Part shown: positions 2,314 through 21,587 of the stretch, piece after piece
Position numbering within the stretch: position 1 is the first letter of the stretch
Layout: each line of letters opens with the position of its first letter
DNA from: Candidatus Bipolaricaulota bacterium
Lineage (GTDB): Bacteria > Bipolaricaulota > Bipolaricaulia > RBG-16-55-9 > DRXL01
Length of the DNA stretch: 27,870 bases
Direction: 5' to 3'
NCBI GenBank assembly: GCA_041641035.1
Contig: JBEPZC010000001.1
Coordinates: 1-27,870 of the forward strand
Position numbers and translations under genes: made by a program
Notes under the pieces: model-generated
What the model was told of the DNA's origin: nothing
Databases searched by the model: none
Seen by the model: only the letters and a program-made list of their open reading frames with translations

Positions 2314-2333
2314 AACACTTCTATTGTAGTCAT

Positions 2334-2369
2334 TTGTCGGCTGTCACGCAACTCTATGAGATAGATCAC
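2334..2369. promoter_or_regulatory. Tandem Crp/Fnr-like boxes upstream of crp1
   Basis: TTGTCGGCTGTCAC (2334) and ATGAGATAGATCAC (2356), 22 bp apart. Minus-strand TACAAT at 2328-2323. Confidence 0.55.
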
Positions 2370-2387
2370 AACTCGGGGGGTAAAGTC

Positions 2388-3056
2388 TTACTGAGAGCAG
2401 AGCTTCTCTTCATTGATGAGGAGAATCCTGCGGCCCTCCAGGGAGATCCAGCCCTGACGCTCAAGGTCGTGCAATACCCGACTGACGGTCTCCGGGGCCA
2501 TACCCACCAAGGCCGCCCACTCGTCCCGCGAGAGCTTCAAGTCAATCACTACACCCTGTGAAGCGCGCTTGCCAAAGCGCTCTGCCACCTCGACCAACTT
2601 GCGGGTGAGCCGCGCCGCACTCTCAACATAGACTGTCTTGACCAGCGCCGCACGCACCTCCCCCAGCTGGCGCACCAGGTCCTCCATGATCCAGAGCAAC
2701 AAACTCGGATATCGCATGAAAACCTTGTGGATCTCGGGGTGCGCAAACCACGCAAGAGAGGTCTGCCGGAGCGTCACGGCAGAGCACGTGTGCACGGCAT
2801 TGCTGAAGAGCTCGCCCATCCCAAGGATCTCGCCAGGTCCGACCAACCGGACAAACTGCACGCATCCTTCGCTCTGCCAAAACTCCTTTACGGCACCATC
2901 CAAGACGATATAGAGACCATCGACGAGATCCCCTTGGGCATATATCTGAGCGTCTGGGGGAAAGAGAAGCTCCTGGGCGCTGGCGAGCACGACCTCGCGT
3001 GCCTCAGGTTCCAGCTTGTCTAAGAGGCTCTGCAACTTGCGCGTCATACACCCCAT
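2388..3056 (-). CDS. Crp/Fnr family transcriptional regulator (Crp2); alternative start ATG 3047
   Basis: IYAQGDLVDGLYIVLDGAVKE...GPGEILG and HTH LSRDEWAALVGMAPETVSRVL. Confidence 0.9.
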   Translation of the reverse strand: MGCMTRKLQSLLDKLEPEAREVVLASAQELLFPPDAQIYAQGDLVDGLYIVLDGAVKEFWQSEGCVQFVRLVGPGEILGMGELFSNAVHTCSAVTLRQTSLAWFAHPEIHKVFMRYPSLLLWIMEDLVRQLGEVRAALVKTVYVESAARLTRKLVEVAERFGKRASQGVVIDLKLSRDEWAALVGMAPETVSRVLHDLERQGWISLEGRRILLINEEKLCSQ

Positions 3057-3084
3057 AGCTTACTGATCGCAGCATCTCCATGTT

Positions 3085-3120
3085 ATGAGCACGCTCATCT
3101 TGCAAGATGAGTTCGATCAA
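3085..3120. promoter_or_regulatory. Tandem Crp/Fnr-like boxes upstream of crp2
   Basis: ATGAGCACGCTCAT (3085, palindromic arms) and ATGAGTTCGATCAA (3107), 22 bp apart. Minus-strand TAAGCT at 3062-3057. Confidence 0.65.
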
Positions 3121-3138
3121 AGGGGAATGTGACGGAGA

Positions 3139-3945
3139 TCACGGGGCGCGCCGCTGGCCGCACTGCGGGCAGAATCGCTCATCGGCACGGAAACGATAGC
3201 CGCAGCGTGCGCACCATTGCGCCGGACGTTGCGGCACGGCCTCTGGAGAGACCCGTCGTCTTCGCCAAAACCATATGAAGCTGATGACGCCAAGGACTAC
3301 GACAGCAAGCCCCGCCCCAAGCGCTGCCCACAAGATCGAGATCGGTGAGTGAGGGCGCAGCGACGGCAGGGTGTCGGTCTTTCTGTAGCTGACGCGCTGC
3401 TCGATGAGAGTCCCTGGGGAAACAGCGCCGATCCTTTTACCGAAGTAGCGGAAGCCGCGGGTGTCAATCCCTTGGGGGTCGAGCGCGGGGCTTGTTTGCA
3501 ATCCTGTCGCCCGCAACGGCTGTTGCACTTCGATCTCCAAGTTTTTGATCTCGTAGCGATCCGACCGAAAGCGAAAGACGAACGACTTCTCTTCAGAAGT
3601 CCCAAGCACATCATCGTAGTACTCCAGCTGAAAGCGTCGGCTTCCAGGGGTGAAGAGCACAAGCTGCCCCGCTTCACCGGGGAGAAGCTGCCAGTCGTCG
3701 GCAAGCAGGGTTCCAGCAGGGCCAACATGAGCGACGGCGTGGATCTGCGCTGTGCTGGGAATGGTGAACGCAAGAGGACTTTGTGGGTCTTCAGCAAGCT
3801 CGCCCCGATAGATCACGAGCAGTCTGGGATCGTCGTACTCCGGCCAAAGCGAGATCTCCAAACGCTCAAGCACTATTGGGACCTGCTGGGAGAACCCCAG
3901 CGCCCCCATAATAATGAGCATGAAGACGCTCAATGCGCGACGCAT
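3139..3945 (-). CDS. Hypothetical membrane protein: signal peptide, extracytoplasmic domain, TM helix, C-terminal zinc ribbon
   Basis: Hydrophobic N-terminus (MRRALSVFMLIIMGALGFS), TM helix (ISILWAALGAGLAVVVLGVISFIWFW) followed by RRRR, and CARCG...RFCPQCG. Confidence 0.75.
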   Translation of the reverse strand: MRRALSVFMLIIMGALGFSQQVPIVLERLEISLWPEYDDPRLLVIYRGELAEDPQSPLAFTIPSTAQIHAVAHVGPAGTLLADDWQLLPGEAGQLVLFTPGSRRFQLEYYDDVLGTSEEKSFVFRFRSDRYEIKNLEIEVQQPLRATGLQTSPALDPQGIDTRGFRYFGKRIGAVSPGTLIEQRVSYRKTDTLPSLRPHSPISILWAALGAGLAVVVLGVISFIWFWRRRRVSPEAVPQRPAQWCARCGYRFRADERFCPQCGQRRAP

Positions 3946-3983
3946 TTGGCCTCAGTCTACTTCACGCTAGTGCGGGCTGCAAC

Positions 3984-5723
3984 TCAGAATCTGGTATGAC
4001 ATTGGGAGCACATGTTTGCTCTGTCAGTAAGGTGACACGTGGAGCAGAAGTCGTGTCCAGGCTTGGGCATCTCTTGATTTAAGAACTCTAAGTGCCCCAT
4101 CTGAGTGACTCCCTCATGACATGCTTCACAGCGCACCCACAGAGCGATATGGGTCTCATGAGGGAACTGGGCTGCTCTTTCAGAGCGCTTTGGGAGTGCT
4201 GCTTCGTGACACTGTAAGCAGTCCTGAGATTCTAGCTGGGCCATGCGCTCAGCAGGAGGGTGGCATTGTGTGCAGTCTCGCGCTGCAGCGAGCGTTTGGC
4301 CGTGCTCTGCGGGCTGCACAGCATGGCACGCATCGCAGTCGGCATTCTTGAGATGGACCCTATGAGACGCCGGGGCTTGCACAAACGCGAGAGCTTCCAC
4401 GCCGACATGACAACGATTGCACCCGAACGGTTCCCCAGTGTGCAACGGCTTCTCAGCCATGTACTCGCCCTGCACGTGCAGCGCTCGCACACGAGCGATG
4501 TCCTCAGCGCTGCGGCGCAGCAGGGCGCTCACATAGTGAATGTTGTGCACGCCGAAGCTGCGATCTCCTTCAATCAGCTCGATGTTCTTCTTGGCTTGTT
4601 CATATTCTGGGGTGTGGCTGAGCTGGTGTTCGAGCTGAGCGAGCTGCTGGCGCAGCTCGGCGAGCTTCTGCGAGACGAACTGTTGCCACTGGCGCATCAG
4701 ACGATCGTATCCGGGGCCATGACAGGTCACACACGCCTGAGGCTGCGCTCTCGTTGCGATCGGCGTGCGACTCTGATGACACCCTATACAGATCACGCCC
4801 GATAAGAACATGGGATCGGGCATGGGCTCCACTCCCACCCCTCCTGTGCCCATATAGATCTGCTCTTGGATGGAGTGGTGTCCCCCATGGCAGCTGGCGC
4901 AATCGGGCGAGAGCGCCTGGGCCAGCTCGAACCTGCCATGCTCTAACTGTGCGTGACAATCAGTACACTTGAGATGCTGCTCAGTGACATGGGTCCGATG
5001 GAGAAGCTCGGTCTTGCCGTACTCTTCAAAGCGCTCGACGTGACACGAGAAGCACTTCTCGCGGAGCACGTTGCCCCGGCCACGGGTGACGTGCACATGG
5101 CATGTCAAGCACTCAACACCGCTTTTCAGGTATTCTGAGTGATTGAAGACGACCCCGCGGATGAGAATCTGATCCTTCGGTGGCCCATGACAGCTATAGC
5201 AGTCCCCTACAGCTTGCCCGCGCACAACACCAGTGAAGTGACAGATCTTGCAGGCGCCCTCGTCCACAGCCAGATGGTCTCCCTGGACGAGTTGGGAGTG
5301 GCACGTCGTGCAGGTCAGCTCGATACCACGAGCAGAGACCCCATAGTGTGTGGTGTGGCTGAATGGGATCTTCTTGCGATAGAGCGTGACTCCCTCTAGA
5401 GCCTTCTCGTCGTGGCAGCTTAGACAGTTGCGGTCGCTGACGCGGGAGTGCGGCTGCATATTGTACGCGCCGACCCAGTAGCGCAGCATCTCGCCTAATA
5501 ATCTGATCTTCCCCGCGATATACCCAGAAAGACCGTGCTCATAGTGACACTCGATGCAGTTCACTCTGGCGTGGCTGGAGCTGGCCCAGTTGTCATAGAA
5601 CGGCTTCATGAAGTGACACGACGCGCAGAAATTGGGCTGATCGGTCGCGCGCGCCCCAGCCCACGCCAGCCAGATCAGTATCCCCACTGCTATGAGTGCG
5701 AGCACAAGCCACCGACGTCTCAT
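3984..5723 (-). CDS. 19-heme c-type cytochrome (paralog B) with N-terminal TM anchor and NapC/NirT/NrfH-like domain
   Basis: 19 CxxCH counted. N-terminal TM helix, then TDQPNFCASCHFMKPFYDNWASSSHARVNCIECH. Confidence 0.9.
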   Translation of the reverse strand: MRRRWLVLALIAVGILIWLAWAGARATDQPNFCASCHFMKPFYDNWASSSHARVNCIECHYEHGLSGYIAGKIRLLGEMLRYWVGAYNMQPHSRVSDRNCLSCHDEKALEGVTLYRKKIPFSHTTHYGVSARGIELTCTTCHSQLVQGDHLAVDEGACKICHFTGVVRGQAVGDCYSCHGPPKDQILIRGVVFNHSEYLKSGVECLTCHVHVTRGRGNVLREKCFSCHVERFEEYGKTELLHRTHVTEQHLKCTDCHAQLEHGRFELAQALSPDCASCHGGHHSIQEQIYMGTGGVGVEPMPDPMFLSGVICIGCHQSRTPIATRAQPQACVTCHGPGYDRLMRQWQQFVSQKLAELRQQLAQLEHQLSHTPEYEQAKKNIELIEGDRSFGVHNIHYVSALLRRSAEDIARVRALHVQGEYMAEKPLHTGEPFGCNRCHVGVEALAFVQAPASHRVHLKNADCDACHAVQPAEHGQTLAAARDCTQCHPPAERMAQLESQDCLQCHEAALPKRSERAAQFPHETHIALWVRCEACHEGVTQMGHLEFLNQEMPKPGHDFCSTCHLTDRANMCSQCHTRF

Positions 5724-6580
5724 ACGCGTTCAGCCTTCGCGCGCTCTTGCATGATCTGTTCGTACTCCAGAGGATGCTCCTCCATCATGCGCTTCTTCGA
5801 GATCTTCCCCGTGAAGATCGTCATATTGATGGGGAAGACCTCAGGGTTGAGATGGGCGTGATACATGTGCCAGGTGATGAGCGCGAGGATTGCCAGCAAC
5901 GCCTCGCCCGAATGAGCCTGCAGAGCGACGTCAAAGATATACTTGGGGAAATACGCTAATGCTATTCTATGAAACCAGAGCATCAGCCCGGAGAGCACCA
6001 TGACCGCTGTGCCCCACACTAGCGCCCAATACTCGAATTTCTCGCTGTAGCTGTAGCGCCCGAACTTGGGACGCTCTGACGACAGCCCGAGCATAAACTT
6101 CACATTGGCGATAAAGTCCCACAGATCTTTCACTCTGGGGAGCAGCTCGCGCAGTTCGCGACGGCCCTCGCGCGTCAGCAGCCATCCGATATGCCACACA
6201 GTGACGAGCATCAACAGCGACGCTCCCACCCGATGGATGATACGATTGACCTCCAAGCTCCAGATCGTGCGGAAGAGGAACTCCGCCCAGGCCGAATCGT
6301 GAAACTTGATGGGCAGCCCCGTGATCGTCAGCAGGATCACTCCAATAGCCAGCACCAGATGCTGCAGACAGACGTTCAGACTGAACCGCACGAAGTACTC
6401 TTCTTCTTCTTTCTCTTGTGCGACGCGACGTTGCTTTGCCTGCAGTTCTGCTTTCAGCTGCGCCCGAACCAACTCCTTGATGCGTTGCAGCTCAGCGTCA
6501 TCGAGCGGGCGAGCTAGCTCATGTTCGAGCTCGCGTTGTAACTCTCGTACGAGTCGCTCTTCGTTTGCAAAGTCAGCCAT
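5720..6580 (-). CDS. Diheme cytochrome b, FdnI/HydC type (CbcL membrane-domain-like), with N-terminal coiled coil
   Basis: RFSLNVCLQHLVL, IIHRVGA, RYSYSEKFEYWALVWGTAVMVLSG, LQAHSGEA and ITWHMYHAH motifs. AGGAG RBS upstream. Confidence 0.85.
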   Translation of the reverse strand: MADFANEERLVRELQRELEHELARPLDDAELQRIKELVRAQLKAELQAKQRRVAQEKEEEEYFVRFSLNVCLQHLVLAIGVILLTITGLPIKFHDSAWAEFLFRTIWSLEVNRIIHRVGASLLMLVTVWHIGWLLTREGRRELRELLPRVKDLWDFIANVKFMLGLSSERPKFGRYSYSEKFEYWALVWGTAVMVLSGLMLWFHRIALAYFPKYIFDVALQAHSGEALLAILALITWHMYHAHLNPEVFPINMTIFTGKISKKRMMEEHPLEYEQIMQERAKAERV

Positions 6581-7637: not shown

Positions 7638-8341
7638 AGCAAGCCCTTCTCTTTGAGACGCTGGTACTCCAGCGGGTGCTCTTCTTGCAGGTGCTTCGCT
7701 GAGATCTTGCCATCCCAGAAGCTCCAATCTATAGGGAACCGCCCTGGACTCAAATGCACTAAATACAGATGCCACAGCGTCAGCACGATGAGAATAAGCG
7801 TCCCTGTGCCACTGTGGACAGCGAGAGCCACGTCAAAGGCCCACTTGGGCAATACCACAAAGAACCAATCGTGACACCAGAGAACGAACCCGCTGGCGAT
7901 CATAATCACGACGAAGAGCGCAAAGGCCCAATACTGAAATTTCTCACGGTAGCTGTAGCGATCCAGCTGAGGTTTTTCAGGGCGCAATCCCAGATCATAG
8001 AGCAACGCGGCACCGTAATCTTTGAAGTCTTGGGTTTTGAAGAGCATCTGCATGAATTCTTCGTGGCCGGTGCGCGAGAACAGAATGTACAGAATGTGAT
8101 AGAGCACCGTAGCTATGAGCACTCCCGCAGCGATGCGATGGAGCGTGCCGCGGGCCTCAAAGCCTCCTGTGAGCGCTATAAGCAAGCGCCCAAAGGTGCT
8201 GTCCCGATAGAGCAGTGCCAAGCCCGTCAAAATCAAGAGCGTGACGCTCACCATAAGCGCAAAGTGCTGCACTCGCACCTGAATATTGATTCTCTCGATG
8301 GTGCGCTCTTCACTGAGTCCTCTGATGTGTTCACTGGGCAT
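7634..8341 (-). CDS. Diheme cytochrome b, FdnI/HydC type (second copy)
   Basis: RVQHFAL, TLHRIAA, RYSYREKFQYWA, LAVHSGTG and TLWHLYLVH; paralog of 5720..6580. Confidence 0.85.
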   Translation of the reverse strand: MPSEHIRGLSEERTIERINIQVRVQHFALMVSVTLLILTGLALLYRDSTFGRLLIALTGGFEARGTLHRIAAGVLIATVLYHILYILFSRTGHEEFMQMLFKTQDFKDYGAALLYDLGLRPEKPQLDRYSYREKFQYWAFALFVVIMIASGFVLWCHDWFFVVLPKWAFDVALAVHSGTGTLILIVLTLWHLYLVHLSPGRFPIDWSFWDGKISAKHLQEEHPLEYQRLKEKGLL

Positions 8342-9128
8342 GACGCCTCCTTAACCATCGAATGATGTCGAGACTGACATGGAGCACGAACAGAGCGGTA
8401 AACACTCCCAGAAAAGCGATATAAAAAATCCGCACAATGTATACCCCAGGTGAGACGCTCAACTTGGCTTCGACGTGGACCTTGCCCTTGAGCAGATTCG
8501 CGCTCACGTGGGGATGGCATTGCCCGCACGTCTGCACGAGATTGTTGGGATGGATCGACGAATGGGGATCGGATGCGGCTAAGATCAGATGGCTCCCGTG
8601 GCAACTGGAGCAATTGGCTGCAATGAGATTGCCGTATTTGACGGAGAGACCATGATAGCTCCCCCAGTACGTTGAATAGCGACGGGTAGCAATGCCGAAA
8701 CGCTCGGAGAGCCCGGAGTTCTCATGGCAGCGTCCGCAGGTCTGCGGGAGATTGCGCACGAAGACCTGGGAGCGTGGGTCGGCTTTCGAGAAGATCGCGT
8801 GAGCCGAATGGCAATCGGTGCAGCGGGCGGCCTCTCCGATCCCTTGAGCGCGGGCTTGACCGTGCACGCTCCTTTGATATTGCTGAACTTGGTCAAGATG
8901 ACAGCCCGCGCACGCCTGAGCCGTCAGCCGGCTGGGCCGCTGCTCATGAGGGATGCCCTGGACGTCGCTATGACAGACGGTGCACGCGAGATCTCGGTGC
9001 ACAGAGCCTTCGAACGCTGCGCGATCGAAAGTCTCGGTGTGACAATCCCAACACTCTGTGGGCTGTCGCGCGACAGCTGGTGCAGAAGCCAGCACGAGCA
9101 GTATCCCAACGAACGTGATCGAGCGCAT
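8331..9128 (-). CDS. Heptaheme c-type cytochrome with signal peptide and C-terminal TM anchor
   Basis: 7 CxxCH; shorter paralog of 6573..7637. Confidence 0.88.
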   Translation of the reverse strand: MRSITFVGILLVLASAPAVARQPTECWDCHTETFDRAAFEGSVHRDLACTVCHSDVQGIPHEQRPSRLTAQACAGCHLDQVQQYQRSVHGQARAQGIGEAARCTDCHSAHAIFSKADPRSQVFVRNLPQTCGRCHENSGLSERFGIATRRYSTYWGSYHGLSVKYGNLIAANCSSCHGSHLILAASDPHSSIHPNNLVQTCGQCHPHVSANLLKGKVHVEAKLSVSPGVYIVRIFYIAFLGVFTALFVLHVSLDIIRWLRRRHAQ

Positions 9129-9171
9129 AAACTCCCCAATTCAGTTGTAGCCGAACGGCGCAACTTGTGCT

Positions 9172-9207
9172 ATGATACAGATCGGGGGAAAAGATGAGAT
9201 ACGTCAT
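9172..9207. promoter_or_regulatory. Tandem Crp/Fnr-like boxes, putative internal promoter
   Basis: ATGATACAGATCGG (9172) and ATGAGATACGTCAT (9194, within AAGATGA-N6-TCATCTT), 22 bp apart, in an 80-bp gap of an otherwise overlapping gene string. Confidence 0.6.
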
Positions 9208-9208
9208 C

Positions 9209-12174: not shown

Positions 12175-12176
12175 AG

Positions 12177-13606: not shown

Positions 13607-13643
13607 AGCGCTCTATTCTAGTCGGTTTCTCGCGGTACAAGCT

Positions 13644-13679
13644 ATGATACATGGCATTTTTGAATATGATATCTATCAA
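13644..13679 (-). promoter_or_regulatory. Tandem Crp/Fnr-like boxes for the Rieske/cytb operon
   Basis: ATGATACATGGCAT (13644) and ATGATATCTATCAA (13666), 22 bp apart. Minus-strand -10 TAGAAT at 13620-13615. Confidence 0.6.
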
Positions 13680-13696
13680 CCAAGAAGAGCAAAAAG

Positions 13697-13760
13697 ATGA
13701 CGAAGCGCAGCTTCAATGCCGCTCTCCATCATAGCCCGATCTGATGCAGGCCGCTATACT
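13697..13760 (+). promoter_or_regulatory. Degenerate tandem boxes and -10 for the crp3-hao unit
   Basis: ATGACGAAGCGCAG (13697) and CCGCTCTCCATCAT (13719), each with one good half-site, 22 bp apart. TATACT at 13755-13760. Confidence 0.4.
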
Positions 13761-13784
13761 GAATTAACGTAAGGTGAAGTGAGC

Positions 13785-14510
13785 ATGGCTGCTCTCACAG
13801 ATCAGATACACCGATGCATGCTGTTTGAGCACCTGAGCGAGCGAGCGCTTGGAGAGCTGCGAAAACACATGCGGAAGATCACCTACGGGAAGGGGGATCT
13901 CATCTTTCAAGAGGGAGGTCCCTCAGCAGGGTTTTATATAGTGATCAGCGGGCTAGTGCAGTACGGGAAGCGCTCAGGGCAGCGTGGCCGACGACGCATC
14001 CTGAAGCTCTTAGGGCCAGGGGATTGCTTTGGGGAAGAGATGCTCTTTCAGCCCGAAGTCTGTCCATGTCCCGGCTATGCCCGTGCGCTCACGGAAACGG
14101 AGGTCATGTTCATCGAGCGTAGCGCTTTTATGGACCTCCTCAAACGCTATCCCTCTGTGGCCCATCGGTTGTGTGAGTATCTGACAAAACAACTACGAGT
14201 CTTCGAGTGCAAGCTGGTCGAACTGGCCTATGAGCCTGTGGAGCAGAATCTCATACGGCTGCTGCTCATTCTTACGGATCGCTTTGGGAAACGCACGAAA
14301 GAGGGCATCTCTCTCGAGATGCCGCTGAGCCGTCAAGAGCTGGCTGAACTGGTGGGGGTCCACTTAGATACAGTCATTCACGAATTGAGCAAGTTACGAG
14401 AGCAAGGCTTGATCGCGCTCAGCGATCACAAGATCGTCATCACAGAGCCTGAACGCCTGCGAGAGCGAGCGGAGCCGCAGACAACATGTCTGAGCGAGAA
14501 GCTCTTTTAA
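13785..14510 (+). CDS. Crp/Fnr family transcriptional regulator (Crp3)
   Basis: IFQEGGPSAGFYIVISGLVQ...GPGDCFGEE and HTH LSRQELAELVGVHLDTVIHELSKL. ATG 13785 is preferred over GTG 13779 for its spacing from AAGGTG. Confidence 0.9.
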   Translation: MAALTDQIHRCMLFEHLSERALGELRKHMRKITYGKGDLIFQEGGPSAGFYIVISGLVQYGKRSGQRGRRRILKLLGPGDCFGEEMLFQPEVCPCPGYARALTETEVMFIERSAFMDLLKRYPSVAHRLCEYLTKQLRVFECKLVELAYEPVEQNLIRLLLILTDRFGKRTKEGISLEMPLSRQELAELVGVHLDTVIHELSKLREQGLIALSDHKIVITEPERLRERAEPQTTCLSEKLF

Positions 14511-14540
14511 GCAATACCAAAGGAGAAGGAGGCAGACTCT

Positions 14541-15821
14541 ATGCGCAGAAAAGATGTACTATGGGTGATCGGGGTAGGGATGGTGCTTGTGGGAGCCTTT
14601 GCGCTCTGGACGGGATGGGGGATCCTTCAGCCGGAACACCCCTCCTCTGAGACGACCGATCTGTGTATAGACTGTCATAAGGACGTGACGCCGCAACTCG
14701 TGAGAGATTTTCAGCAGAGTAAGAAGTACGCCATAGGTATTCGCTGTGAGGCGTGTCATGGTGGGGAGCACACAAGCGCTACAGATGTGGCCAAAGCCCA
14801 GATCCCCACGCCAGAGACGTGTGGGGGATGCCACCCAGATCGCGTCGAGCAATTTCAAGCGGGCAAGCACGCGTTCGCATGGGCCGCGATGAACGCCATG
14901 CCCACAACCCACATGCAGCCTATGGAGCTGATGGAGGGCAAGAAGGGCTGTGGCGGGTGCCATAAGATCGGCCTCAAGACCGAAGAAGAGATTCAAGCGA
15001 TGCGATCCGCCGGTGAGATTCACGGGCTGGCATCGTGCGATTCGTGCCATACGCGCCACTCGTTCTCCGTGGAAGAAGCTCGCCAGCCCGAAGCCTGCGC
15101 TACTTGTCATATGGGCTTCGATCATCCCCATTGGGAGATGTGGAGCACCTCCAAGCATGGGGTACGATTCGCTCTGAAGCGCCAGGGCGTGCTCCCCCAA
15201 GACGCCGCTGCGCCAAGCTGCCAGACGTGTCACATGCCTGATGGCAACCATGAGGTGCGCGCCGCGTGGGGGTTCTTAGCTGTGCGGCTCCCCTTGCCCG
15301 ACGACAAAGAATGGGCCGAAGACCGTGTGACGATCTTGAAAGCCCTGGGCGTTCTCGATCCAGAGGGCAATCCCACGGCGCGACTCGACGTGGTCAAAGC
15401 TGCCGACGTTGTGCGCTTGACCCAAGAAGCCTGGCAGGCCGAGCGCGACAAGATGCTCTCCATCTGCTCACAGTGCCACGCCAAGGTCTTCGCTCAGGCT
15501 GAGCTAGAGAAGGGCGATAGAATCATCCGAGAAGCAGATCGTCTCTTGGCCGAGGGCATCCGCATCGTGGCCAAGCTCTACGAAGATGGGCTTTTGAAGA
15601 AGCCAGAGCACTTTGCGTACAACTATCCCGATCTGTTGGCATTCTATGAAGTCAGCCACCCTATCGAGCAAGCGCTCTTCAAGATGTTCTTAGAGTATAG
15701 AATGCGCACGTTCCAAGGGGCGTTCCATACCAACCCAGACTACACCTTCTGGTATGGCTGGGCGGAGATGAAGGCCTCGCTCACGGAGATCAAGACGTGG
15801 GAGAAAGAGCTGCGCCGGTGA
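14541..15821 (+). CDS. Octaheme cytochrome c, hydroxylamine oxidoreductase (HAO)-like family
   Basis: 8 CxxCH with HAO-type context: CDSCHTRHSFSVEEARQPEACATCHMGFDHPHWEMWSTSKHG and FHTNPDYTFWYGW. N-terminal TM/signal. Confidence 0.85.
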   Translation: MRRKDVLWVIGVGMVLVGAFALWTGWGILQPEHPSSETTDLCIDCHKDVTPQLVRDFQQSKKYAIGIRCEACHGGEHTSATDVAKAQIPTPETCGGCHPDRVEQFQAGKHAFAWAAMNAMPTTHMQPMELMEGKKGCGGCHKIGLKTEEEIQAMRSAGEIHGLASCDSCHTRHSFSVEEARQPEACATCHMGFDHPHWEMWSTSKHGVRFALKRQGVLPQDAAAPSCQTCHMPDGNHEVRAAWGFLAVRLPLPDDKEWAEDRVTILKALGVLDPEGNPTARLDVVKAADVVRLTQEAWQAERDKMLSICSQCHAKVFAQAELEKGDRIIREADRLLAEGIRIVAKLYEDGLLKKPEHFAYNYPDLLAFYEVSHPIEQALFKMFLEYRMRTFQGAFHTNPDYTFWYGWAEMKASLTEIKTWEKELRR

Positions 15822-15939
15822 GCCCATAAGGCCCTCACCCTGCCCTTCAGAGCAAGGGCTCTGATCTTCGTCATATTTCCCTCCGGCCCATAGCGCACCT
15901 TTTGCTCGAAAAGCGCGGATTTTGCACTTCCCTATATCC

Positions 15940-16000
15940 TAGACACGCTTCTTCTCTTTATTACAATAATATTTGCATATTTTCAAAAACTAGAAAATAT
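15940..16000 (+). promoter_or_regulatory. Sigma70-like promoter and inverted-repeat operator upstream of arsR
   Basis: TAGACA (15940)-N16-TACAAT (15962), followed by ATATTTTC-N8-GAAAATAT (15977-16000) in an AT-rich patch. Confidence 0.55.
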
Positions 16001-16013
16001 CGGGAATGATGGA

Positions 16014-16376
16014 ATGGAAGATGAACTTACAGTGCTGCAGGCCCACATGTGCAAGGTGCTTGCGCACCCCAAGCGCCTGCGGATTATCTATGCCCTGCGC
16101 ACGGGCGAACGCAGCGTCGGGGAGCTTGTTCAAGAACTCAAGCTTCCGTATGCCAATCTCTCCCAGCACTTGCGCGTATTGCTGGAGGCCAGACTGGTCG
16201 AGGTACGCCATCATGGACGATATAAATATTATTATCTCTCGATCCCGCAGATCGCTGAAGCGTGCGATCTCGTGCGCCGAGTGTTGCGGGAGCGTCTGAC
16301 ACAACTTGGAAAGTTGGCACAAGCCAACAATAAAAGAGAAAAAGAGAAAGAAAAGAAAGGAGGTGAATCTCGATGA
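16014..16376 (+). CDS. ArsR/SmtB family transcriptional regulator
   Basis: CKVLAHPKRLRIIYAL...SVGELV...ANLSQHLRVLLEARLV winged HTH; Cys13 and Cys84. Confidence 0.92.
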   Translation: MEDELTVLQAHMCKVLAHPKRLRIIYALRTGERSVGELVQELKLPYANLSQHLRVLLEARLVEVRHHGRYKYYYLSIPQIAEACDLVRRVLRERLTQLGKLAQANNKREKEKEKKGGESR

Positions 16377-17521
16377 AGAAGCTCTGGGGCGTTGCCGTAC
16401 TGTTGGTCGGCGTGCTCGCGGGGCTTGGCGCTCTGAGCATCTCTTTTGTTGGGAGTCCCGTGCCGATGCACCACTTTGAGACGGCTTTAGCACAGGCGCA
16501 TCCGTGGGCAACGGCTCAGCAGGACCCAGCTCAGACCTTCCCCACAAGCCTGCACGCCACCCGCGAGGGCAAGCGCACCTGGTACGGGAAGGAGAACGGC
16601 GGTTTTGAGACGCTCACGAACGTTCCTATCGAGAAGCTGGGATGCCTCGGCTGTCACCCTGGCACCTACGCTGACGGCTCCAAGGTCGATCCCGCTACGT
16701 ATCAGCCCGGGTGCCGAGACTGTCACGCGCAGCCCGGTGACAAAGTCAAGCAAGAGACGTGTCTCAAGTGCCACGCGCGCCAGGGGCTGGAGATGAAGCT
16801 CTACTCCGACGTCCACCGCGAGAAGAATCTGGAGTGCTCGAGCTGTCATACCAGCCGAGAGATGCACGGCGACGGCAAGGTGTATAAGTCGTGGCTAGAG
16901 CCGGGCGCCATGGATGCCTCTTGTGATAAGTGCCACACGACCATTGCGACCACCGTCTCCCACGCGATACACGCCAAGACAGTCGACTGCGCCAGCTGCC
17001 ACTCGCAGTCGGTCGTCGCCTGCTACAACTGTCACCTCGACAGCGCTGTAGCTGTCCCAGGAACCAAGCGCTTCTACGGGCCTGTGAAGGACTTCACATT
17101 CCTGCTCAACCGCCAAGGGACGGGCAAGGTCTACTCCGCCACGATCCAGCCGCTCGTTCACGGCGGCAAGTCCTTCGTGGCCATCGCGCCGTTCCGCGGA
17201 CACACCATCTCGAAGAAGGGGCGCGGCTGCGCAGAGTGCCACAACAACGCCATCATCCAAGAGTACGCCAAGACCGGCAAGATCACGGTCTCCAAGTGGG
17301 ACGGCAGCAAGCTCGTCTTCACCACGGGCGTCATCCCCGTGCCACCCGATTGGAAGACGGCGCTCTTGTTCGACTTCGTCGACTACACAGGAGACATCAC
17401 CAAGCCGGAGACCGATCCGACCAAGTGGGTCTTCCTCAAGTCCGGTGCAGACCTGATGCAGATGCTCTACGCTGACCCCTTGACCAAGGAGCAGATCGAG
17501 AAGCTCAAGCAAGCCCGCTAA
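16373..17521 (+). CDS. Secreted octaheme c-type cytochrome of unassigned family
   Basis: Signal peptide, 8 CxxCH, strong AGGAGG RBS, ATGA overlap with arsR. Confidence 0.88.
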   Translation: MKKLWGVAVLLVGVLAGLGALSISFVGSPVPMHHFETALAQAHPWATAQQDPAQTFPTSLHATREGKRTWYGKENGGFETLTNVPIEKLGCLGCHPGTYADGSKVDPATYQPGCRDCHAQPGDKVKQETCLKCHARQGLEMKLYSDVHREKNLECSSCHTSREMHGDGKVYKSWLEPGAMDASCDKCHTTIATTVSHAIHAKTVDCASCHSQSVVACYNCHLDSAVAVPGTKRFYGPVKDFTFLLNRQGTGKVYSATIQPLVHGGKSFVAIAPFRGHTISKKGRGCAECHNNAIIQEYAKTGKITVSKWDGSKLVFTTGVIPVPPDWKTALLFDFVDYTGDITKPETDPTKWVFLKSGADLMQMLYADPLTKEQIEKLKQAR

Positions 17522-17543
17522 AGCTCATACGGACGGCATTGGC

Positions 17544-17587
17544 AGGGGGCTTGGCCGGCTTCACGGCCAAGCCCTCTTGGTTCGTTT
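17544..17587 (+). terminator. Intrinsic terminator after the octaheme gene
   Basis: GGGCTTGGCCG-gcttca-CGGCCAAGCCC stem followed by a T-rich tail (TCTTGGTTCGTTT). Confidence 0.65.
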
Positions 17588-17652
17588 ATGACGAAAATCA
17601 TCTCTCTTTATGAGAGCGCTCATAGCATGGGCAGGGAAAGCGCGCCTATACT
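17588..17652 (+). promoter_or_regulatory. Tandem Crp/Fnr-like boxes and -10 for resABC
   Basis: ATGACGAAAATCAT (17588) and ATGAGAGCGCTCAT (17610), 22 bp apart. TATACT at 17647-17652. Confidence 0.7.
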
Positions 17653-17682
17653 CAAACTGAGCCGTAACGAAGGAGGCAGACA

Positions 17683-18282
17683 ATGGTGGCACGGCTGGTC
17701 GTCGCGGTCTTGATCGCAGCGGGGGCCATTGTGCTGGGGGTTATTAGCTATGCGTTCTTCACCGGCCGCAGCGATCTGAGCAAACTCACGCTCACTGAGG
17801 GTCGAGGGCTCTTCGTGGACGACCCCAAGGCCCTCATCGCAGAGACCGCCGCGAGCTTAGGGCATCTCGCCCCGGATTTCTCGTTGGAAGACCTCACCGG
17901 CCGGAGGGTGAGCCTGAGCGACCTGCGGGGCAAACCCGTCTTACTCAATCTCTGGGCGACGTGGTGCCCCCCCTGCCGCCAAGAGATCCCCGAACTCCAA
18001 GAATTCCATGAACGCTACGGGGAGAAGATCGCGCTCGTGGGCGTCAATTGGGGCGAAGACGCGAACACTGTGAGAGGTTTTTTGGCTCAGTTTGGCGTCA
18101 GCTATCTCAACTTACTTGACCCTCGCGGCACAACGTTTGTTCTCTATGGGCTGACGGGCATCCCCGAGAGCTTCTTCATCGACCCTGAGGGCTACATTCG
18201 TGGGGCGTGGATTGGGCCGATCACAGCAGAAAGTATCTCCAAGGGCTTTGCGCGGTTGGGGCTTCTCAAAGAAAGTGAGTGA
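17683..18282 (+). CDS. resA: ResA/TlpA thiol-disulfide oxidoreductase (cytochrome c maturation)
   Basis: N-terminal TM; APDFSL...GKPVLLNLWATWCPPCRQE...GIPESFFIDPEG. Confidence 0.9.
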   Translation: MVARLVVAVLIAAGAIVLGVISYAFFTGRSDLSKLTLTEGRGLFVDDPKALIAETAASLGHLAPDFSLEDLTGRRVSLSDLRGKPVLLNLWATWCPPCRQEIPELQEFHERYGEKIALVGVNWGEDANTVRGFLAQFGVSYLNLLDPRGTTFVLYGLTGIPESFFIDPEGYIRGAWIGPITAESISKGFARLGLLKESE

Positions 18283-18288
18283 TTCTCT

Positions 18289-20061
18289 ATGACCTGTGCG
18301 GCGTGCGGAACAGTCAATACCCCTGATAGTCGCTTTTGCAAGCACTGCGGCGTAGCACTCCAAGTGCTCTGTAGTCGCTGTGCCACGGCGAACACGCCCG
18401 ATAGCAGATTTTGTAAGGCGTGTGGGGCTGCTTTGACACAAGCGGTTCCAGCTCCACCGCCCCGCGCCACAGAGCTCGCGGTTGACGGTGCACTGCGGGG
18501 CAAGGTCGCGGAGGTCGTCAAGGTCTTAGGCGGGCTCAACTGTGGGCGCTGCGGCTATCGCACGTGCGCTGAAAATGCTCTGGCGATTGTGCGCGGGGAG
18601 GCCCCCCCACACTCCTGCGTCCAGGGCGGCGAAGAAGCTGCTCGTCAAATTCGCGCGATCTTGGGCCATCCTGAACGACCCAGCTTCGGGGCGCTGTTGT
18701 GGGAGCAGCTCACGTCGATTAAGCTTGCCATCGTGCTCATCGTCGTGATCGTCTTGCTCTCTATCATCGGCACGATCATCCCCCAAGGCAAAGATCTGCT
18801 CTTTTATATAGCTCGTTATGGAGAGGCCGGGACGAATATCATCAAAGCGCTCAAGCTCGACAGCCTCTATCACTCGTGGTACTTTGTGAGTTTGCTTGTG
18901 CTGTTAGCTCTCAATACCGGGGCGTGCGCGACCAAGCGCTTTCGCGTCTCGTGGGAGCTGGTGCGCAAGCCCGTCGAGCCCCGCAGCGCCGACGAGATCG
19001 CACAACTCCCAACCCAAGCCAAGCTCGCTCCTCATCTTTTTGAAAAGCTCGAAGACGCTCTCAAGCGCCGGCGCTACCGCGTGCGCCGCGAAGGCACGCA
19101 GCTCATTGCGTATAAGAATCTGTGGGGCCGGCTAGGCATCGATATCTTGCACGGAAGCTTGATCATCATTCTCATCGGGGGCATCGTCGGAGGGCTTCTG
19201 GGGTTTGAGAGTTTTCAGATCGCGCACAAGGGCGAGACGTTCACGATCCCCCAGGGCAACTTCCAAGTCCGCGTGGACGACCTAAGAGTCGTCAACTACG
19301 AGGGCTCCAGTCAAGTGAAAGACTGGTACACCACGCTCACGGTCATTGATGGCGGCCGCGAAGTGCTCACCAAGACCATCGAAGTGAACGAGCCGTTGAC
19401 GTATAAGGGGATCTCTCTCTATCAAGCATCGTTTGGCAGCGACTGGCTGGGCGGGGCCGAGCTGACGTTTCGCATCGAGCGCGTGAAGGAGGGAAGAGCT
19501 GAGCCGGTCAGCGAGATCACGACGAAGGTCGGCGCGACGTTCCCTCTTGAAGAGGGGCGCACGGCAAAAGTCGTCGCGTTCTATCCCGATTTTATCGTGA
19601 CAGAGCAAGGGCCGGCCAATCGCTCGCAAGCCCTCAACAACCCCGCAGCGTTCTTAGAAGTCTACAACGGCGACCGGCGAGAGTTCACAACGTGGACGTT
19701 TGCCCAGTTCCCCGAATTCCAGCACGACTTCGCCAGAGAGACCCCCTATCGGTTCTATCTTGTGGGAATGAAAGCCCCGGAGTTTACGGGGCTGCAGATC
19801 GCGCGCAACCCCGGAATTCCCATTATCTACGCTGGGTTTATTCTGCTGGTCTTGGGGCTAGCGTTGAACTTCTATCTGCCGCCAAGGCGCCTGTGGGCCG
19901 CCGTGAAAGAGAGCGCTCTGTATGTCGGAGGACTAGGGCGTGAGCCACGCGAGTTCGAGCCGGACTTCGAAGAGATCATCGCCGACCTATCCCAGGTATC
20001 CGCTCCTACAGAAGACTCAAAAGAAAAGACATTACTCAAGGAGGTTAGCAAGCATGGATAG
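18289..20061 (+). CDS. resB: ResB/CcsB cytochrome c biogenesis protein with N-terminal double zinc ribbon and Fe-S domain fusion
   Basis: ResB core: LTSIKLAIVLI...IIGTIIPQG, YHSWYF...CATKRF, ILHGSLII, VNEPLTYKGISLYQASF, LQIARNPGIPIIYAG. Residues 1-130 carry four CxxC plus CGRCGYRTC-x16-C. Confidence 0.9.
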   Translation: MTCAACGTVNTPDSRFCKHCGVALQVLCSRCATANTPDSRFCKACGAALTQAVPAPPPRATELAVDGALRGKVAEVVKVLGGLNCGRCGYRTCAENALAIVRGEAPPHSCVQGGEEAARQIRAILGHPERPSFGALLWEQLTSIKLAIVLIVVIVLLSIIGTIIPQGKDLLFYIARYGEAGTNIIKALKLDSLYHSWYFVSLLVLLALNTGACATKRFRVSWELVRKPVEPRSADEIAQLPTQAKLAPHLFEKLEDALKRRRYRVRREGTQLIAYKNLWGRLGIDILHGSLIIILIGGIVGGLLGFESFQIAHKGETFTIPQGNFQVRVDDLRVVNYEGSSQVKDWYTTLTVIDGGREVLTKTIEVNEPLTYKGISLYQASFGSDWLGGAELTFRIERVKEGRAEPVSEITTKVGATFPLEEGRTAKVVAFYPDFIVTEQGPANRSQALNNPAAFLEVYNGDRREFTTWTFAQFPEFQHDFARETPYRFYLVGMKAPEFTGLQIARNPGIPIIYAGFILLVLGLALNFYLPPRRLWAAVKESALYVGGLGREPREFEPDFEEIIADLSQVSAPTEDSKEKTLLKEVSKHG

Positions 20062-20935
20062 CGCGTTCTTCTTCTATCTGAGTGCCGTGGGGTACTTTCT
20101 GAGCTTTGTCTTCTATCTGCTGCATCTTATCGGGAGCCCTACAGATCAGAAATCTGGGCTGGGCATCGTGGCAGCGCCCCAGCCGTGGGTGCTCAAGCAG
20201 ACGACCTGGGGCAAAGTCGCCACAGGGACAACTCTTGTCACCGTGCTCATCAGCACGGTCGGGATGGTGCTGCGCGTTCTCGAGATGCATCGGGTGTCGG
20301 ACTTCTGGATGCTGCCGGTGACCAATACGTATGAGACGCTAGCGTTCTTCTCCTGGGCGATCCCCCTGGTCTATCTGCTCTTTGAGTGGCGCTACAAAAT
20401 CAGAGTGGTCGGGGCTTTTGCGACAGGGTTGGCGTTTCTGTTCATCGCGTTAGCGTCATCGCCGCTTTTGTCGAGCGAGGTCCGTCCGCTGGTGCCGGCG
20501 CTGCAGAGCTATTGGCTCGTCTTGCACGTCTTCTTTACGCTGGGCGGCGAGGCGTTCTTCGCTGTGGCGTTTGGCGCAGGTGCGCTCTTCTTATGGCTAC
20601 AGAAGCGTGGGGGGAATCTCCAGACGCTCAAGATGCTCGATAACCTGGGCTACAAAGCGATTGCCTTAGGGTTTCCGCTCTTCACGCTAGGCGGGCTGGT
20701 CTTTGGGGCGATCTGGGCACAGCATGCGTGGGGACGCTACTGGGGCTGGGACCCCAAAGAGACGTGGATGCTCATTACTTGGTTCTTCTATGCGCTCTAC
20801 TTGCACGTGCGGGTGAGGTGGGGCTGGCGCGACGCGAAAACGGCTTGGCTGGCGGTCGGCGGCTTCGCCGTCGCTATGTTTACGTGGTGGGGTGTGAATT
20901 ATCTGTTAGCGGGCTTGCATAGTTACGCAGGCTAA
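20054..20935 (+). CDS. ccsA: ResC/CcsA cytochrome c synthase (System II)
   Basis: WWD domain GAIWAQHAWGRYWGWDPKETW and LQSYWLVLHV. Start moved from 19940 to ATG 20054 (MDSAFFF). Confidence 0.95.
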   Translation: MDSAFFFYLSAVGYFLSFVFYLLHLIGSPTDQKSGLGIVAAPQPWVLKQTTWGKVATGTTLVTVLISTVGMVLRVLEMHRVSDFWMLPVTNTYETLAFFSWAIPLVYLLFEWRYKIRVVGAFATGLAFLFIALASSPLLSSEVRPLVPALQSYWLVLHVFFTLGGEAFFAVAFGAGALFLWLQKRGGNLQTLKMLDNLGYKAIALGFPLFTLGGLVFGAIWAQHAWGRYWGWDPKETWMLITWFFYALYLHVRVRWGWRDAKTAWLAVGGFAVAMFTWWGVNYLLAGLHSYAG

Positions 20936-20953
20936 CACAAGAAGGAGGTGATC

Positions 20954-21517
20954 ATGATGCTCAAGCGTATGATAGCCATTGCGCTCTTTGTGGCAGTCCC
21001 CTTAGGGGTGACTGTGATAGTGATGGCGTTGGCCCAGCAGCCTCCGGCTATTCCCAAGGGGCACGTCTCGATCAAGACGGGAGCCCCCGTCGAACTCTGC
21101 TTCCGGTGCCATAAGGCTCCACCGCCCTTGCCCACAGAGAAGACGTCGTTCTGCGCGACGTGTCATATCAACATTCACATAGAAGAGACGGAATTTGTCG
21201 ACGTGACGCGGGTGGGGAATCGCTCCAAGCACCCTGTAGAGTTCAACTGGGCAGCAGCGGATTGCTCATCGTGCCACACCAAGCCGCATAAGACGAAACC
21301 CGCGCCGCACCCGGTTACGGCGCAGCAGCCGTTGAGCGCCTTCTGTCAGCCGTGTCACTTGAACCCTGCAGACCCAGAGAAAGCCGTAGGCGGACAGGAG
21401 AAAGCTGGAGAGTTCTGCGCCGGGTGTCACCATATCGGGCTCAATCCGAAGCACGTGAAGGCCCCCGCTGGGGTCAAAGTTAACTTCTGCTTCGGTTGTC
21501 ATAAGACGACGCCGTGA
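20954..21517 (+). CDS. Small hexaheme c-type cytochrome (paralog 1)
   Basis: Signal peptide, 6 CxxCH; AGGAGG RBS favours ATG 20954 or 20957. Confidence 0.88.
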   Translation: MMLKRMIAIALFVAVPLGVTVIVMALAQQPPAIPKGHVSIKTGAPVELCFRCHKAPPPLPTEKTSFCATCHINIHIEETEFVDVTRVGNRSKHPVEFNWAAADCSSCHTKPHKTKPAPHPVTAQQPLSAFCQPCHLNPADPEKAVGGQEKAGEFCAGCHHIGLNPKHVKAPAGVKVNFCFGCHKTTP

Positions 21518-21522
21518 CAACT

Positions 21523-21587
21523 GTGACCAAGATCAACCGGAGCAATATCTCAGATCATAGACAGTGGCTGTGCACCCCAGCTAGACT
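21523..21587 (+). promoter_or_regulatory. Tandem Crp/Fnr-like boxes and -10 for the pentaheme-hexaheme-ttrBA unit
   Basis: GTGACCAAGATCAA (21523) and ATATCTCAGATCAT (21545), 22 bp apart. TAGACT at 21582-21587. Confidence 0.55.

Follow-up and report, generated by a model that had tools for sequence, protein, structure and literature searches.

Putative composite operators of Crp/Fnr-type regulators, built from FNR-type boxes 22 bp apart, in Candidatus Bipolaricaulota

FNR-type boxes in a 27,870-nucleotide stretch of Bipolaricaulota DNA (all of it analyzed, and referred to here as the window) occur as tandem pairs with centers exactly 22 bp apart. We think it likely, with a probability of roughly 0.7, that these boxes are operator sites of FNR-type members of the Crp/Fnr family and that they function as composites, each made of two palindromes spaced by 22 bp.

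The TGA-N6-TCA core occurs 24 times in the window, compared to 8.05 ± 2.85 times in dinucleotide shuffles (maximum 15). This is a threefold excess over the kind of shuffled background that the first-pass annotation of this DNA had proposed as a control. Ten of the 24 boxes lie within the 1,099 intergenic bases, which make up 3.9% of the window (binomial p = 1e-8). If a pair is counted as one exact box with a partner of at most one mismatch, there are six pairs at 22 bp in the window versus 0.1 ± 0.3 in 300 shuffles, and five in intergenic DNA alone versus 0.007 in shuffles. The histogram of box distances in the window has its sole peak at 22 bp (n = 6; 0-2 for offsets 8-60). Both the coordinates of the boxes and the 22-bp offset had been proposed before; every box is present where it was placed, and no pair departs from the spacing of 22 bp, as expected of a PwhiB1-type arrangement (two sites ~21 bp apart on one face). 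The boxes are inverted repeats of the FNR type (TGA-N6-TCA core, TTGAT-N4-ATCAA type), with the PWM consensus ATGATCTAGATCAT. The GTGA/TCAC flanks of the cAMP-CRP site (TGTGA-N6-TCACA) are missing from most of them. The regulator genes, the boxes and the predicted promoter elements in the window are as follows.

1555..2313, minus strand: crp1, Crp/Fnr regulator; recognition helix S-T-E-T-A-I-R
2323..2328, minus strand: crp1 -10 hexamer TACAAT; -35 TTGCGT 17 nt upstream
2334..2347, minus strand: crp1 promoter, weak box within the -35/-10 spacer; candidate autorepression site
2356..2369, minus strand: crp1 promoter, upstream strong box (GTGATCTATCTCAT on the minus strand), abutting the -35 on its upstream side; kept in three orthologous loci
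2388..3056, minus strand: crp2, Crp/Fnr regulator; FNR-type helix E-T-V-S-R (A-P-E-T-V-S-R); best candidate binder
3057..3062, minus strand: crp2 -10 hexamer TAAGCT
3085..3098, minus strand: crp2 promoter, proximal box (~-41.5, predicted from the -10)
3107..3120, minus strand: crp2 promoter, second box (~-63.5, predicted)
3129..3142, minus strand: crp2 promoter, third box (~-85.5, predicted); kept in L013, L016 and L017
9144..9149, minus strand: -10 hexamer TACAAC of the heme gene 8331-9128
9172..9185, minus strand: internal promoter of the heme gene 8331-9128, proximal box
9194..9207, minus strand: the same internal promoter, distal box
13615..13620, minus strand: Rieske operon -10 hexamer TAGAAT
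13644..13657, minus strand: Rieske/cytochrome b operon promoter, proximal box
13666..13679, minus strand: Rieske/cytochrome b operon promoter, distal box
13697..13710, plus strand: crp3 promoter, distal box (ATGACGAAGCGCAG); kept in 10 orthologous loci
13719..13732, plus strand: crp3 promoter, proximal box
13755..13760, plus strand: crp3 -10 hexamer TATACT
13779..14510, plus strand: crp3, Crp/Fnr regulator; atypical helix H-L-D-T-V-I-H
15861..15874, no strand assigned: single conserved box without a 22-bp partner, ~95 nt upstream of the ArsR -10
17588..17601, plus strand: ResA/ResB/CcsA (cytochrome c maturation) promoter, distal box
17610..17623, plus strand: ResA promoter, proximal box
17647..17652, plus strand: ResA -10 hexamer TATACT
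21523..21536, plus strand: promoter of the heme genes and Mo-oxidoreductase unit (21657 onward), distal box
21545..21558, plus strand: heme/Mo-oxidoreductase unit promoter, proximal box; left half degenerate, ATCAT conserved
21582..21587, plus strand: heme/Mo-oxidoreductase unit -10 hexamer TAGACT

The position of the boxes relative to the predicted -10 elements resembles that of class II activator sites. Measured from the center of the proximal box to its own first base, the -10 hexamer is 29.5 nt away at crp2 (TAAGCT), the heme gene 8331-9128 (TACAAC) and crp3 (TATACT), and 30.5 nt at the Rieske operon (TAGAAT), ResA (TATACT) and the heme gene 21657-22781 (TAGACT). At these six promoters the distance to the conserved -10, itself a predicted element, implies a box at -41.5 to -42.5. 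The box overlaps the -35 region at all six, and none has a TTGACA-like hexamer, as is the case at class II promoters. This geometry, also suggested by the first-pass annotation, extends beyond the window: at 9 of 12 independent composite sites elsewhere in the genome, a TAnnnT hexamer follows the box by 22-24 nt, which is the same distance (p ~3e-10). The promoter-proximal TCA(T) is clearly the most invariant half-site. We dropped the notion that outer half-sites are strong and inner ones weak after an unbiased count of the four half-sites gave 9, 3, 4 and 2 mismatches. An AG(C) extension 3' of the proximal box holds in the window and fails genome-wide, and a search anchored on TCATAG gave results too noisy for use.

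The crp1 promoter is the exception among the window promoters. It has a -35 (TTGCGT), and its weak box, the center of which is 12.5 nt from TACAAT, sits inside the -35/-10 spacer of a complete TTGCGT-17-TACAAT promoter. This location fits the autorepression that had been put forward for crp1. The TGAyGG...CA pattern of the weak box is kept in orthologues. The crp1 ATG is 9 nt 3' of TACAAT, a near-leaderless arrangement, and the ATG of the Rieske operon is 8 nt 3' of TAGAAT.

Two other sites differ somewhat from their first description. The crp2 site had been read as a pair (3085/3107). Both of these boxes are present, but the third consensus box at 3129-3142 had been missed, and the site is a triple. 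The TGA of the third box doubles as the stop codon of the upstream zinc-ribbon gene. The true start codon of crp2 is probably the ATG at 3047, rather than the ATG at 3056. The crp3 pair (13697/13719) had been called degenerate, and two of its half-sites do depart from the consensus: the right half of the distal box is a non-consensus yet conserved GCA, and the left half of the proximal box is degenerate in the host genus and a consensus TGA in the sister genus. Yet this pair, like the likewise degenerate pair at 21523/21545, is kept in orthologous promoters, and we therefore regard both as real.

Phylogenetic footprints cover 4-10 orthologous promoters per site (57-92% protein identity). In these promoters, the boxes stay in place at their 22-bp distance, as do the -10 hexamers, as the 8-nt spacers and the flanks diverge. 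We also searched the genome with a single-box PWM and a composite PWM, naming downstream gene products by Pfam. A partner at exactly 22 bp was found for 27 of the 141 strong intergenic boxes from the single-box search (other offsets from 14 to 45 had 0-5 each) and for 18 of 128 outside the window. The genome-wide scan for 22-bp pairs that had been proposed supports the spacing as well. The peak is absent from coding DNA. About half of the excess intergenic boxes in the genome are single, and pairing is therefore common but not obligatory.

The composite PWM detected at least 10 further composite sites in the genome, preceding FolD, PFOR, MaeB/Pta, NikR, ArsR, a sigma factor, COX2 and a Rieske protein. 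All of the further intergenic sites point to a gene that starts 15-100 nt downstream, and the paired architecture is present at at least 15 promoters per genome. The first-pass annotation had predicted a regulon made up of the genes of this cluster. These genes do carry sites, but that regulon was drawn too narrowly, as genes of central carbon and energy metabolism and other regulators throughout the genome also have them. The putative regulon is global: it includes respiratory cytochromes, bc-type and cytochrome b modules, cytochrome c maturation and the Mo-oxidoreductase, together with FolD, PFOR, malic enzyme/Pta, Fe-S proteins, NikR, ArsR-type regulators and a sigma factor.

The fixed phase is also found in relatives. 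Among tandem exact boxes with gaps of 2-26 nt in 29 relatives, the gap is exactly 10 nt in 242 of 525 (46%, the figure for the window's order). A reversed-pattern control gave 0-1 per genome, and no more than 0-1 pairs per genome occur in two large sister families. Pairing at 22 bp thus characterizes one entire order within Bipolaricaulota, together with two further families. In family f8, conserved triples lie beside threonine-aldolase-like and FBP-aldolase-like genes. We rejected autoregulation in this family: its triples adjoin no crp gene, and its E-T-V-T-R regulators are without upstream boxes. The host itself is an uncultured hot-spring bacterium represented by a Bipolaricaulota MAG, and Candidatus Bipolaricaulota is known here from MAG records alone. 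The runs listed as containing the sequence are all DNA metagenomes, from hot springs and aquifers.

The regulators encoded next to the sites agree with the FNR/Crp-type reading of the palindromes that had been given in the first description. Seven Crp-type HTH proteins are encoded in the genome, and three of the genes (crp1, crp2 and crp3) adjoin the sites and bear them on their own promoters. crp2 has the canonical FNR helix, E-T-V-S-R, and so supplies the E--SR regulator that matches the boxes; it is without an N-terminal Cys cluster. None of the three helices has R-E at the positions of the CRP-type helix (R-E---R). crp1 has a conserved N-terminal C-x4-C-x2-C and two further conserved Cys residues (C69, C164). 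Its Cys spacing differs from that of FNR proper (C-x2-C-x5-C plus a central Cys, C122 in E. coli), and the cluster suggests an Fe-S redox or O2 sensor. crp3 has conserved Cys residues (CxC) and a strictly conserved helix, H-L-D-T-V-I-H. This helix is atypical, which makes crp3 a poor candidate for binding the boxes, and crp3 is probably a target rather than a binder. Among homologues of solved structure, all three paralogs are closest to M. tuberculosis CRP and its actinobacterial relatives.

The sites were observed directly, as were their spacing, conservation, promoter geometry and distribution over the genome and across lineages; the identity of the binder, its cooperativity and the sign of regulation are what we infer. 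The most likely binder of the boxes is crp2, based on its E-T-V-S-R helix and on the strongest sites being on its own promoter. We consider crp1 and its paralog (E-T-A-I-R helix, Cys cluster) as second candidates or co-binders. At least four paralogs have E...R/K-type helices: crp1, the copy labeled C69 (S-T-E-T-A-I-R), crp2, and the copy labeled C99 (T-P-E-T-V-S-K). These could all read the same core, so that each of the four is a possible binder. A counterpoint to crp2 is that the paired architecture is wider than its orthologues. When crp2 was profiled across 151 genomes, true orthologues were found only in the window's own family, with paralog-level matches elsewhere; for this reason, its phyletic profile does not name the binder. 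In a survey of five genomes of other families, a tiny sample, E-T-V-(S/T)-R helices occurred only in lineages with pairs (f1, f8), and the crp1-type helix also occurred in f6, a family without pairs.

We postulate that the composite operator consists of two palindromes of the form (A/T)TGA-N6-TCA(T) with centers exactly 22 bp apart, or three at crp2, and that two regulator dimers would bind it side by side, probably cooperatively. The proximal box, ~30 nt before a sigma-70-type -10, would occupy the class II position near -41.5, with the second box near -63.5 and the third near -85.5. The proximal dimer could then activate in the class II manner by touching RNA polymerase, and the distal dimer would stabilize the proximal dimer and take the usual docking place of the alpha-CTD. 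At crp1, a dimer on the box inside the -35/-10 spacer would repress. Loss of the alpha-CTD was considered as an explanation and rejected, as the domain is present in the genome. A counterpoint to activation comes from PwhiB1, the only characterized case of adjacent Crp dimers, in which double occupancy represses. A more specific version of this proposal, speculative and less likely than not, is that a 36-bp composite operator carries either a dimer-of-dimers or two different paralogs as the working unit of the FNR-type regulator in this lineage, and that the abutting upstream dimer replaces the usual contact between the alpha-CTD and DNA. If true, this would be a distinct, lineage-wide mode of Crp/Fnr activation that could be extended to three in-phase dimers wrapping promoter DNA.

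One alternative, raised in the first-pass annotation, is that a different paralog occupies each box (e.g., crp1 and crp2), forming an AND gate at which the promoter fires only in response to both signals. Several paralogs with related, non-identical recognition helices do coexist, and certain non-consensus half-sites are conserved, including the GCA at the crp3 and Rieske promoters. In a by-eye count of the PWM-selected set, without a formal test, ATGAC is frequent as the outer half of the distal box; at the proximal box, the outer half is nearly always ATCAT or CTCAT, with no case of GTCAT. However, the proximal bias could be explained by overlap with the -35 region. One consensus serves for both boxes, which can both be perfect FNR-type palindromes at the same promoter (crp2, ResA). 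In addition, the crp2 triple is unsuited to a two-input gate, and no type of helix tracks the architecture cleanly across families. We consider an AND gate unlikely.

Alternatively, the pairs could act as a concentration-dependent switch or repressor like PwhiB1: one filled site activates, and filling both leaves no room for the alpha-CTD, so that transcription falls. The two PwhiB1 sites are likewise adjacent (21 bp, same face), and filling one of them aids the filling of the other (PMC2844151). The retention of the alpha-CTD, the relationship of the three paralogs to M. tuberculosis CRP and the clearly repressive position of the box at the crp1 promoter would also suit a switch. Nonetheless, this reading seems unlikely to us. 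The PwhiB1 sites are at -58.5 and -37.5, whereas the proximal site here is at the canonical class II distance. The promoters are without a recognizable -35, as is typical of activator-dependent promoters, and a pair, far from being exceptional, is the standard arrangement at many promoters.

A regulator of another family, for example a Rex-like redox repressor with operators that have the TGA-N6-TCA core as well, is very improbable as the binder. The TGA-N6-TCA core is common to several HTH families, and Rex regulons, with their central carbon, Fe-S and respiratory genes, resemble the list of targets here. However, the N-terminal DNA-binding domain of Rex was not found in the host genome (87% complete), the flanks are A/T-TGA rather than the GTGAA of Rex sites, and it is Crp-type genes that adjoin the sites. 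Finally, the low information content of a 6-base core might invite an origin of the pairs by chance or as copies of a small repeated element, but this is refuted by the shuffles, by the reversed-pattern control, and by spacers and flanks that vary between promoters and drift between orthologues as the boxes stay.

Our preferred reading, a composite operator for two FNR-type dimers, bears on both physiology and mechanism. In the literature searched, Crp/Fnr regulons of Bipolaricaulota or Acetothermia are not treated in any paper that we found, nor is any regulon of Candidatus Bipolaricaulota (Acetothermia/OP1) described, and nothing relevant turned up for tandem FNR boxes 22 bp apart. The conserved cis-regulatory code connects clusters for extracellular and respiratory cytochromes with genes of Wood-Ljungdahl and pyruvate metabolism, as well as with other regulators, and therefore predicts which genes switch together. 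For the mechanics of transcription, the main point of interest is the fixed 22-bp phase, and the composite sites are short and well defined. Such fixed pairing is unusual for the well-known FNR-type family and points to adjacent dimers working together. In textbook class II activation, the alpha-CTD sits where the second dimer would sit here. Thus, this lineage may activate differently or use the pairs as a dose-dependent switch.

Several known systems share parts of this arrangement. The E. coli FNR box is TTGAT-N4-ATCAA, centered near -41.5 at class II promoters. The sites described here have the same TGA-N6-TCA core, the same distance to the -10, an E--SR regulator (crp2), and anaerobic and respiratory targets. 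In contrast to FNR and Crp class II promoters, about half of the sites here are adjacent pairs or triples whose phase is fixed at 22 bp, A mostly takes the place of T in the outer flank, and crp1, the candidate Fe-S sensor, has C-x4-C-x2-C instead of the Cys spacing of FNR. Class III Crp promoters have tandem activator sites, one of class I and one of class II, and thus two dimers upstream of a single promoter, as proposed here; the downstream dimer is at ~-41.5, the position predicted for the proximal boxes of this study. In E. coli, the upstream class III site is usually 30-50 bp further up and the alpha-CTD fits between the dimers, whereas the dimers here would abut. The redox repressors CrtJ/PpsR require an operator of two TGT-N12-ACA palindromes, which they bind cooperatively. 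They are likewise redox-linked regulators with a paired-palindrome operator, but they belong to another protein family, recognize another motif and repress.

Two characterized promoters have tandem sites of the Crp/Fnr family itself. The E. coli nrdDG promoter has FNR sites at -33.5 and -64.5, with two FNR dimers on one face of the DNA (PMC10425943). Its spacing of 31 bp keeps the dimers separate, as in a dumbbell, instead of letting them abut, and it is a lone case in a regulon of mostly single sites. The closest precedent for the paired boxes is the M. tuberculosis whiB1 promoter, PwhiB1, with tandem CRP sites at -58.5 and -37.5, 21 bp apart; occupying one CRP site improves occupation of the other, and double occupancy represses (PMC2844151). 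There, as here, adjacent Crp-family sites are about two helical turns apart on the same face (21 bp versus 22 bp), and no solved homologues are nearer to the window's paralogs than its regulators. PwhiB1 is one promoter only, combining a class I activating site with a repressing site at -37.5. The arrangement in Bipolaricaulota, in contrast, is found at at least 15 promoters per genome, has its proximal site at class II distance (predicted -63.5/-41.5), and is conserved across an order-level lineage.

The FNR-type palindromes of the window (boxes; 14 bp, core TGA-N6-TCA) are in excess and recur in tandem, with centres 22 bp (about two helical turns) apart. The core occurs 24 times, compared with 8.05 +/- 2.85 in shuffles, and 10 of the 24 are intergenic, though intergenic DNA is 3.9% of the window (p = 1e-8). 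Six pairs are spaced at exactly 22 bp where 0.1 would be expected (5 vs 0.007 for intergenic-only pairs), and 22 is the sole peak among offsets of 8-60. Both boxes and 22-bp pairs are enriched over shuffled background, and all the box positions listed in the first-pass annotation proved correct.

The window is the entire largest contig of a MAG (87% complete, 1.28 Mb, 57% G+C). Records of close relatives are Candidatus Bipolaricaulota / Acetothermia MAGs, and window sequence is found in hot-spring and aquifer metagenomes. The Pfam-based gene map (gene calls beyond the window are crude longest-ORF calls) includes numerous multiheme cytochromes, two cytochrome b561 modules, a Rieske/cytochrome b pair, an ArsR regulator, a ResA-like thioredoxin, ResB, CcsA, a 4Fe-4S protein, a molybdopterin oxidoreductase and three regulators:

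crp1: 1555-2313, minus strand, Crp/Fnr regulator (Pfam)
crp2: 2388-3056, minus strand, Crp/Fnr regulator (Pfam); orthologue alignment places its start at 3047, not 3056
crp3: 13779-14510, plus strand, Crp/Fnr regulator (Pfam)

At its N-terminus, ResB (18289-20061) is fused to a double zinc ribbon plus a putative Fe-S domain (Pfam DZR, FeS), which cytochrome c maturation proteins do not usually have. Immediately upstream of the ArsR start, and downstream of a TACAAT at ~15962, is an 8-bp inverted repeat, ATATTTTC-N8-GAAAATAT (15977-16000), that is kept in relatives and resembles an ArsR-type autorepression operator.

Comparison with relatives bears on how the pairs arose. In syntenic contigs of same-genus relatives and the sister genus, which are non-independent samples, all orthologous promoters retain the boxes, spaced at exactly 22 bp, and the -10 hexamers, while the 8-nt spacers and the flanking sequence drift freely. 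The Rieske promoter spacers, for instance, read ATTCAAAA, AGCCATAG, GTTCAAAA, ATCTGAGA and CTTCTCTT. Retained boxes amid drifting spacers are classical phylogenetic footprints, and these exclude chance matches or a mobile repeat as the source of the pairs. The two pairs with degenerate halves (13697/13719 and 21523/21545) are likewise conserved in orthologous promoters; the weak left half of the proximal crp3 box is a consensus TGA in the sister genus. The crp2 site is a triple in 22-bp phase, with an additional consensus box at 3129-3142, and this triple is retained at each of the three loci covering it. A single box at 15861-15874 is also conserved. It directly precedes, with no obvious promoter there, a G+C-rich hairpin followed by GATTTT (15893-15923), likely an intrinsic terminator, downstream of the heme gene at 14541-15821.

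Most of the pairs lie in promoters of class II type: the spacing of the proximal box to the predicted -10 is that of class II, and the promoter has no -35 of its own. At six promoters the proximal box centre is 29.5-30.5 nt from a TAnnnT hexamer, as originally claimed. The proximal dimer would activate transcription, and the distal dimer would bind cooperatively beside it. The C-terminal domain of the RNA polymerase alpha subunit (alpha-CTD), which is encoded in the genome, normally docks at class II promoters where a dimer at -63.5 would sit, so either the CTD contact is moved upstream or pairing limits expression. The crp1 promoter is the exception that had been noted, at 12.5 nt. Here TTGCGT-17-TACAAT forms a complete promoter: one box immediately precedes the -35 and a second, weaker but conserved, lies within the spacer, an arrangement that fits the suggested autorepression. 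Regulation through the pairs may be positive or negative. The divergent Rieske and crp3 pairs (13644-13732) are separated by 31 bp centre to centre, which puts all four boxes within 90 bp and on roughly the same DNA face; as many as four dimers could bind side by side.

At four genes the ATG (crp1, 2313; crp2, 3047; zinc-ribbon gene, 3945; Rieske, 13606) is 8-9 nt past the -10 hexamer and lacks a Shine-Dalgarno, so these transcripts are probably leaderless or close to it. The zinc-ribbon gene (3139-3945) carries a complete promoter of its own (TTGCAG, 17 nt, TAGACT; 3946-3983) and no FNR-type box, and its expression is therefore probably independent of the surrounding regulon.

All three regulators have M. 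tuberculosis CRP and its actinobacterial relatives as their nearest homologues of solved structure. Aligned to these, crp2 has an FNR-type recognition helix (E-T-V-S-R), crp1 has E-T-A-I-R, and crp3 has a strictly conserved H-L-D-T-V-I-H that is quite unlike the other two. Because of this helix type and the three consensus boxes on its own promoter, we predict that crp2 is the most likely binder. crp1 and a crp1-like copy with an identical helix, one of seven Crp-type HTH proteins in the genome, are second candidates. The N-terminus of crp1 has a conserved C-x4-C-x2-C, plus two further conserved cysteines, that recalls FNR but differs in spacing. Another paralog (contig C99, 1500-2303, G000) combines the helix T-P-E-T-V-S-K with an FNR-like N-terminal C-x4-C-x5-C; its cNMP and HTH parts are in separate frames, which could reflect a frameshift, an assembly error or a broken gene. 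Phyletic profiling of regulators in relatives picked out no single binder, and no Rex DNA-binding domain was found in the 87% complete genome.

The first-pass annotation had proposed one regulon and a genome-wide scan for pairs. The predicted regulon takes in the window's targets, but it is not limited to this cluster. When the whole assembly was scanned with a single-box PWM, 27 of 141 strong intergenic boxes had a partner at exactly 22 bp, compared with 0-5 at each of the remaining offsets between 14 and 45, and the excess holds beyond the window (18 of 128). Coding DNA had no 22-bp peak, merely the usual 3-nt periodicity. Of the excess intergenic boxes, roughly half belong to pairs. Further intergenic sites, each oriented at a gene start 15-100 nt downstream, were found with a 39-nt composite PWM trained on window sites. 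The genes behind them encode an ArsR regulator, FolD, a PFOR subunit, NikR, an Fe-S protein divergent from a malic-enzyme/Pta fusion, another Fe-S protein, a COX2-domain protein, a Rieske protein and a sigma-70 factor. At 9 of 12 of these independent sites a TAnnnT hexamer, in a region outside the model, is 22-24 nt past the box (p about 3e-10). The class II-type geometry therefore belongs to the regulon as a whole and not to this cluster.

Paired boxes also extend across relatives. Among 31 genomes, two exact boxes 2-26 nt apart gave 5-72 matches per genome, compared with 0-4 for a reversed-pattern control. The gap is exactly 10 nt in 242 of 525 tandem pairs (46%, in the 29 genomes common to both searches), whereas 4% would be expected if all 25 gaps were equally likely. 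At a fixed gap of 10 nt, there are 4-31 pairs per genome in the window's order (families f1-f5), save two genomes with none and one with a single pair; 1-4 in 14 of 14 genomes of family f8; 14 in the single f11 genome; and 0-1 in f9 and the large families f6 and f7, as in the control. Family f6 encodes Crp/Fnr proteins, so the presence of such regulators does not by itself entail pairing. There are recurrent triples in f8 and in a further family, from the window's order. One f8 triple of consensus boxes, intergenic, conserved and in 22-bp phase (loci L045, L046 and L047 in G144, G110 and G059), adjoins threonine-aldolase-like and FBP-aldolase/phosphatase-like genes. In f8 the architecture reaches into central carbon metabolism.

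The boxes and regulators belong to the Crp/Fnr family; cAMP-CRP sites and FNR proper are ruled out by defining residues. In the literature searched, we found no description of the 22-bp tandem arrangement or of a Crp regulon of any kind in Bipolaricaulota. The only characterised adjacent pair is at PwhiB1 of M. tuberculosis, with sites at -58.5 and -37.5 on the same face; the first site aids the second, and filling both leads to repression (PMC2844151). Its 21-bp spacing is close to the 22 bp found here, whereas the two FNR dimers at E. coli nrdDG, also on one face, are 31 bp apart (PMC10425943). What is new is that a global regulon has a fixed 22-bp tandem, at times a triple, as its common architecture, and sequence comparison within Bipolaricaulota relatives indicates that this arrangement is kept over an order-level lineage of this uncultured phylum.
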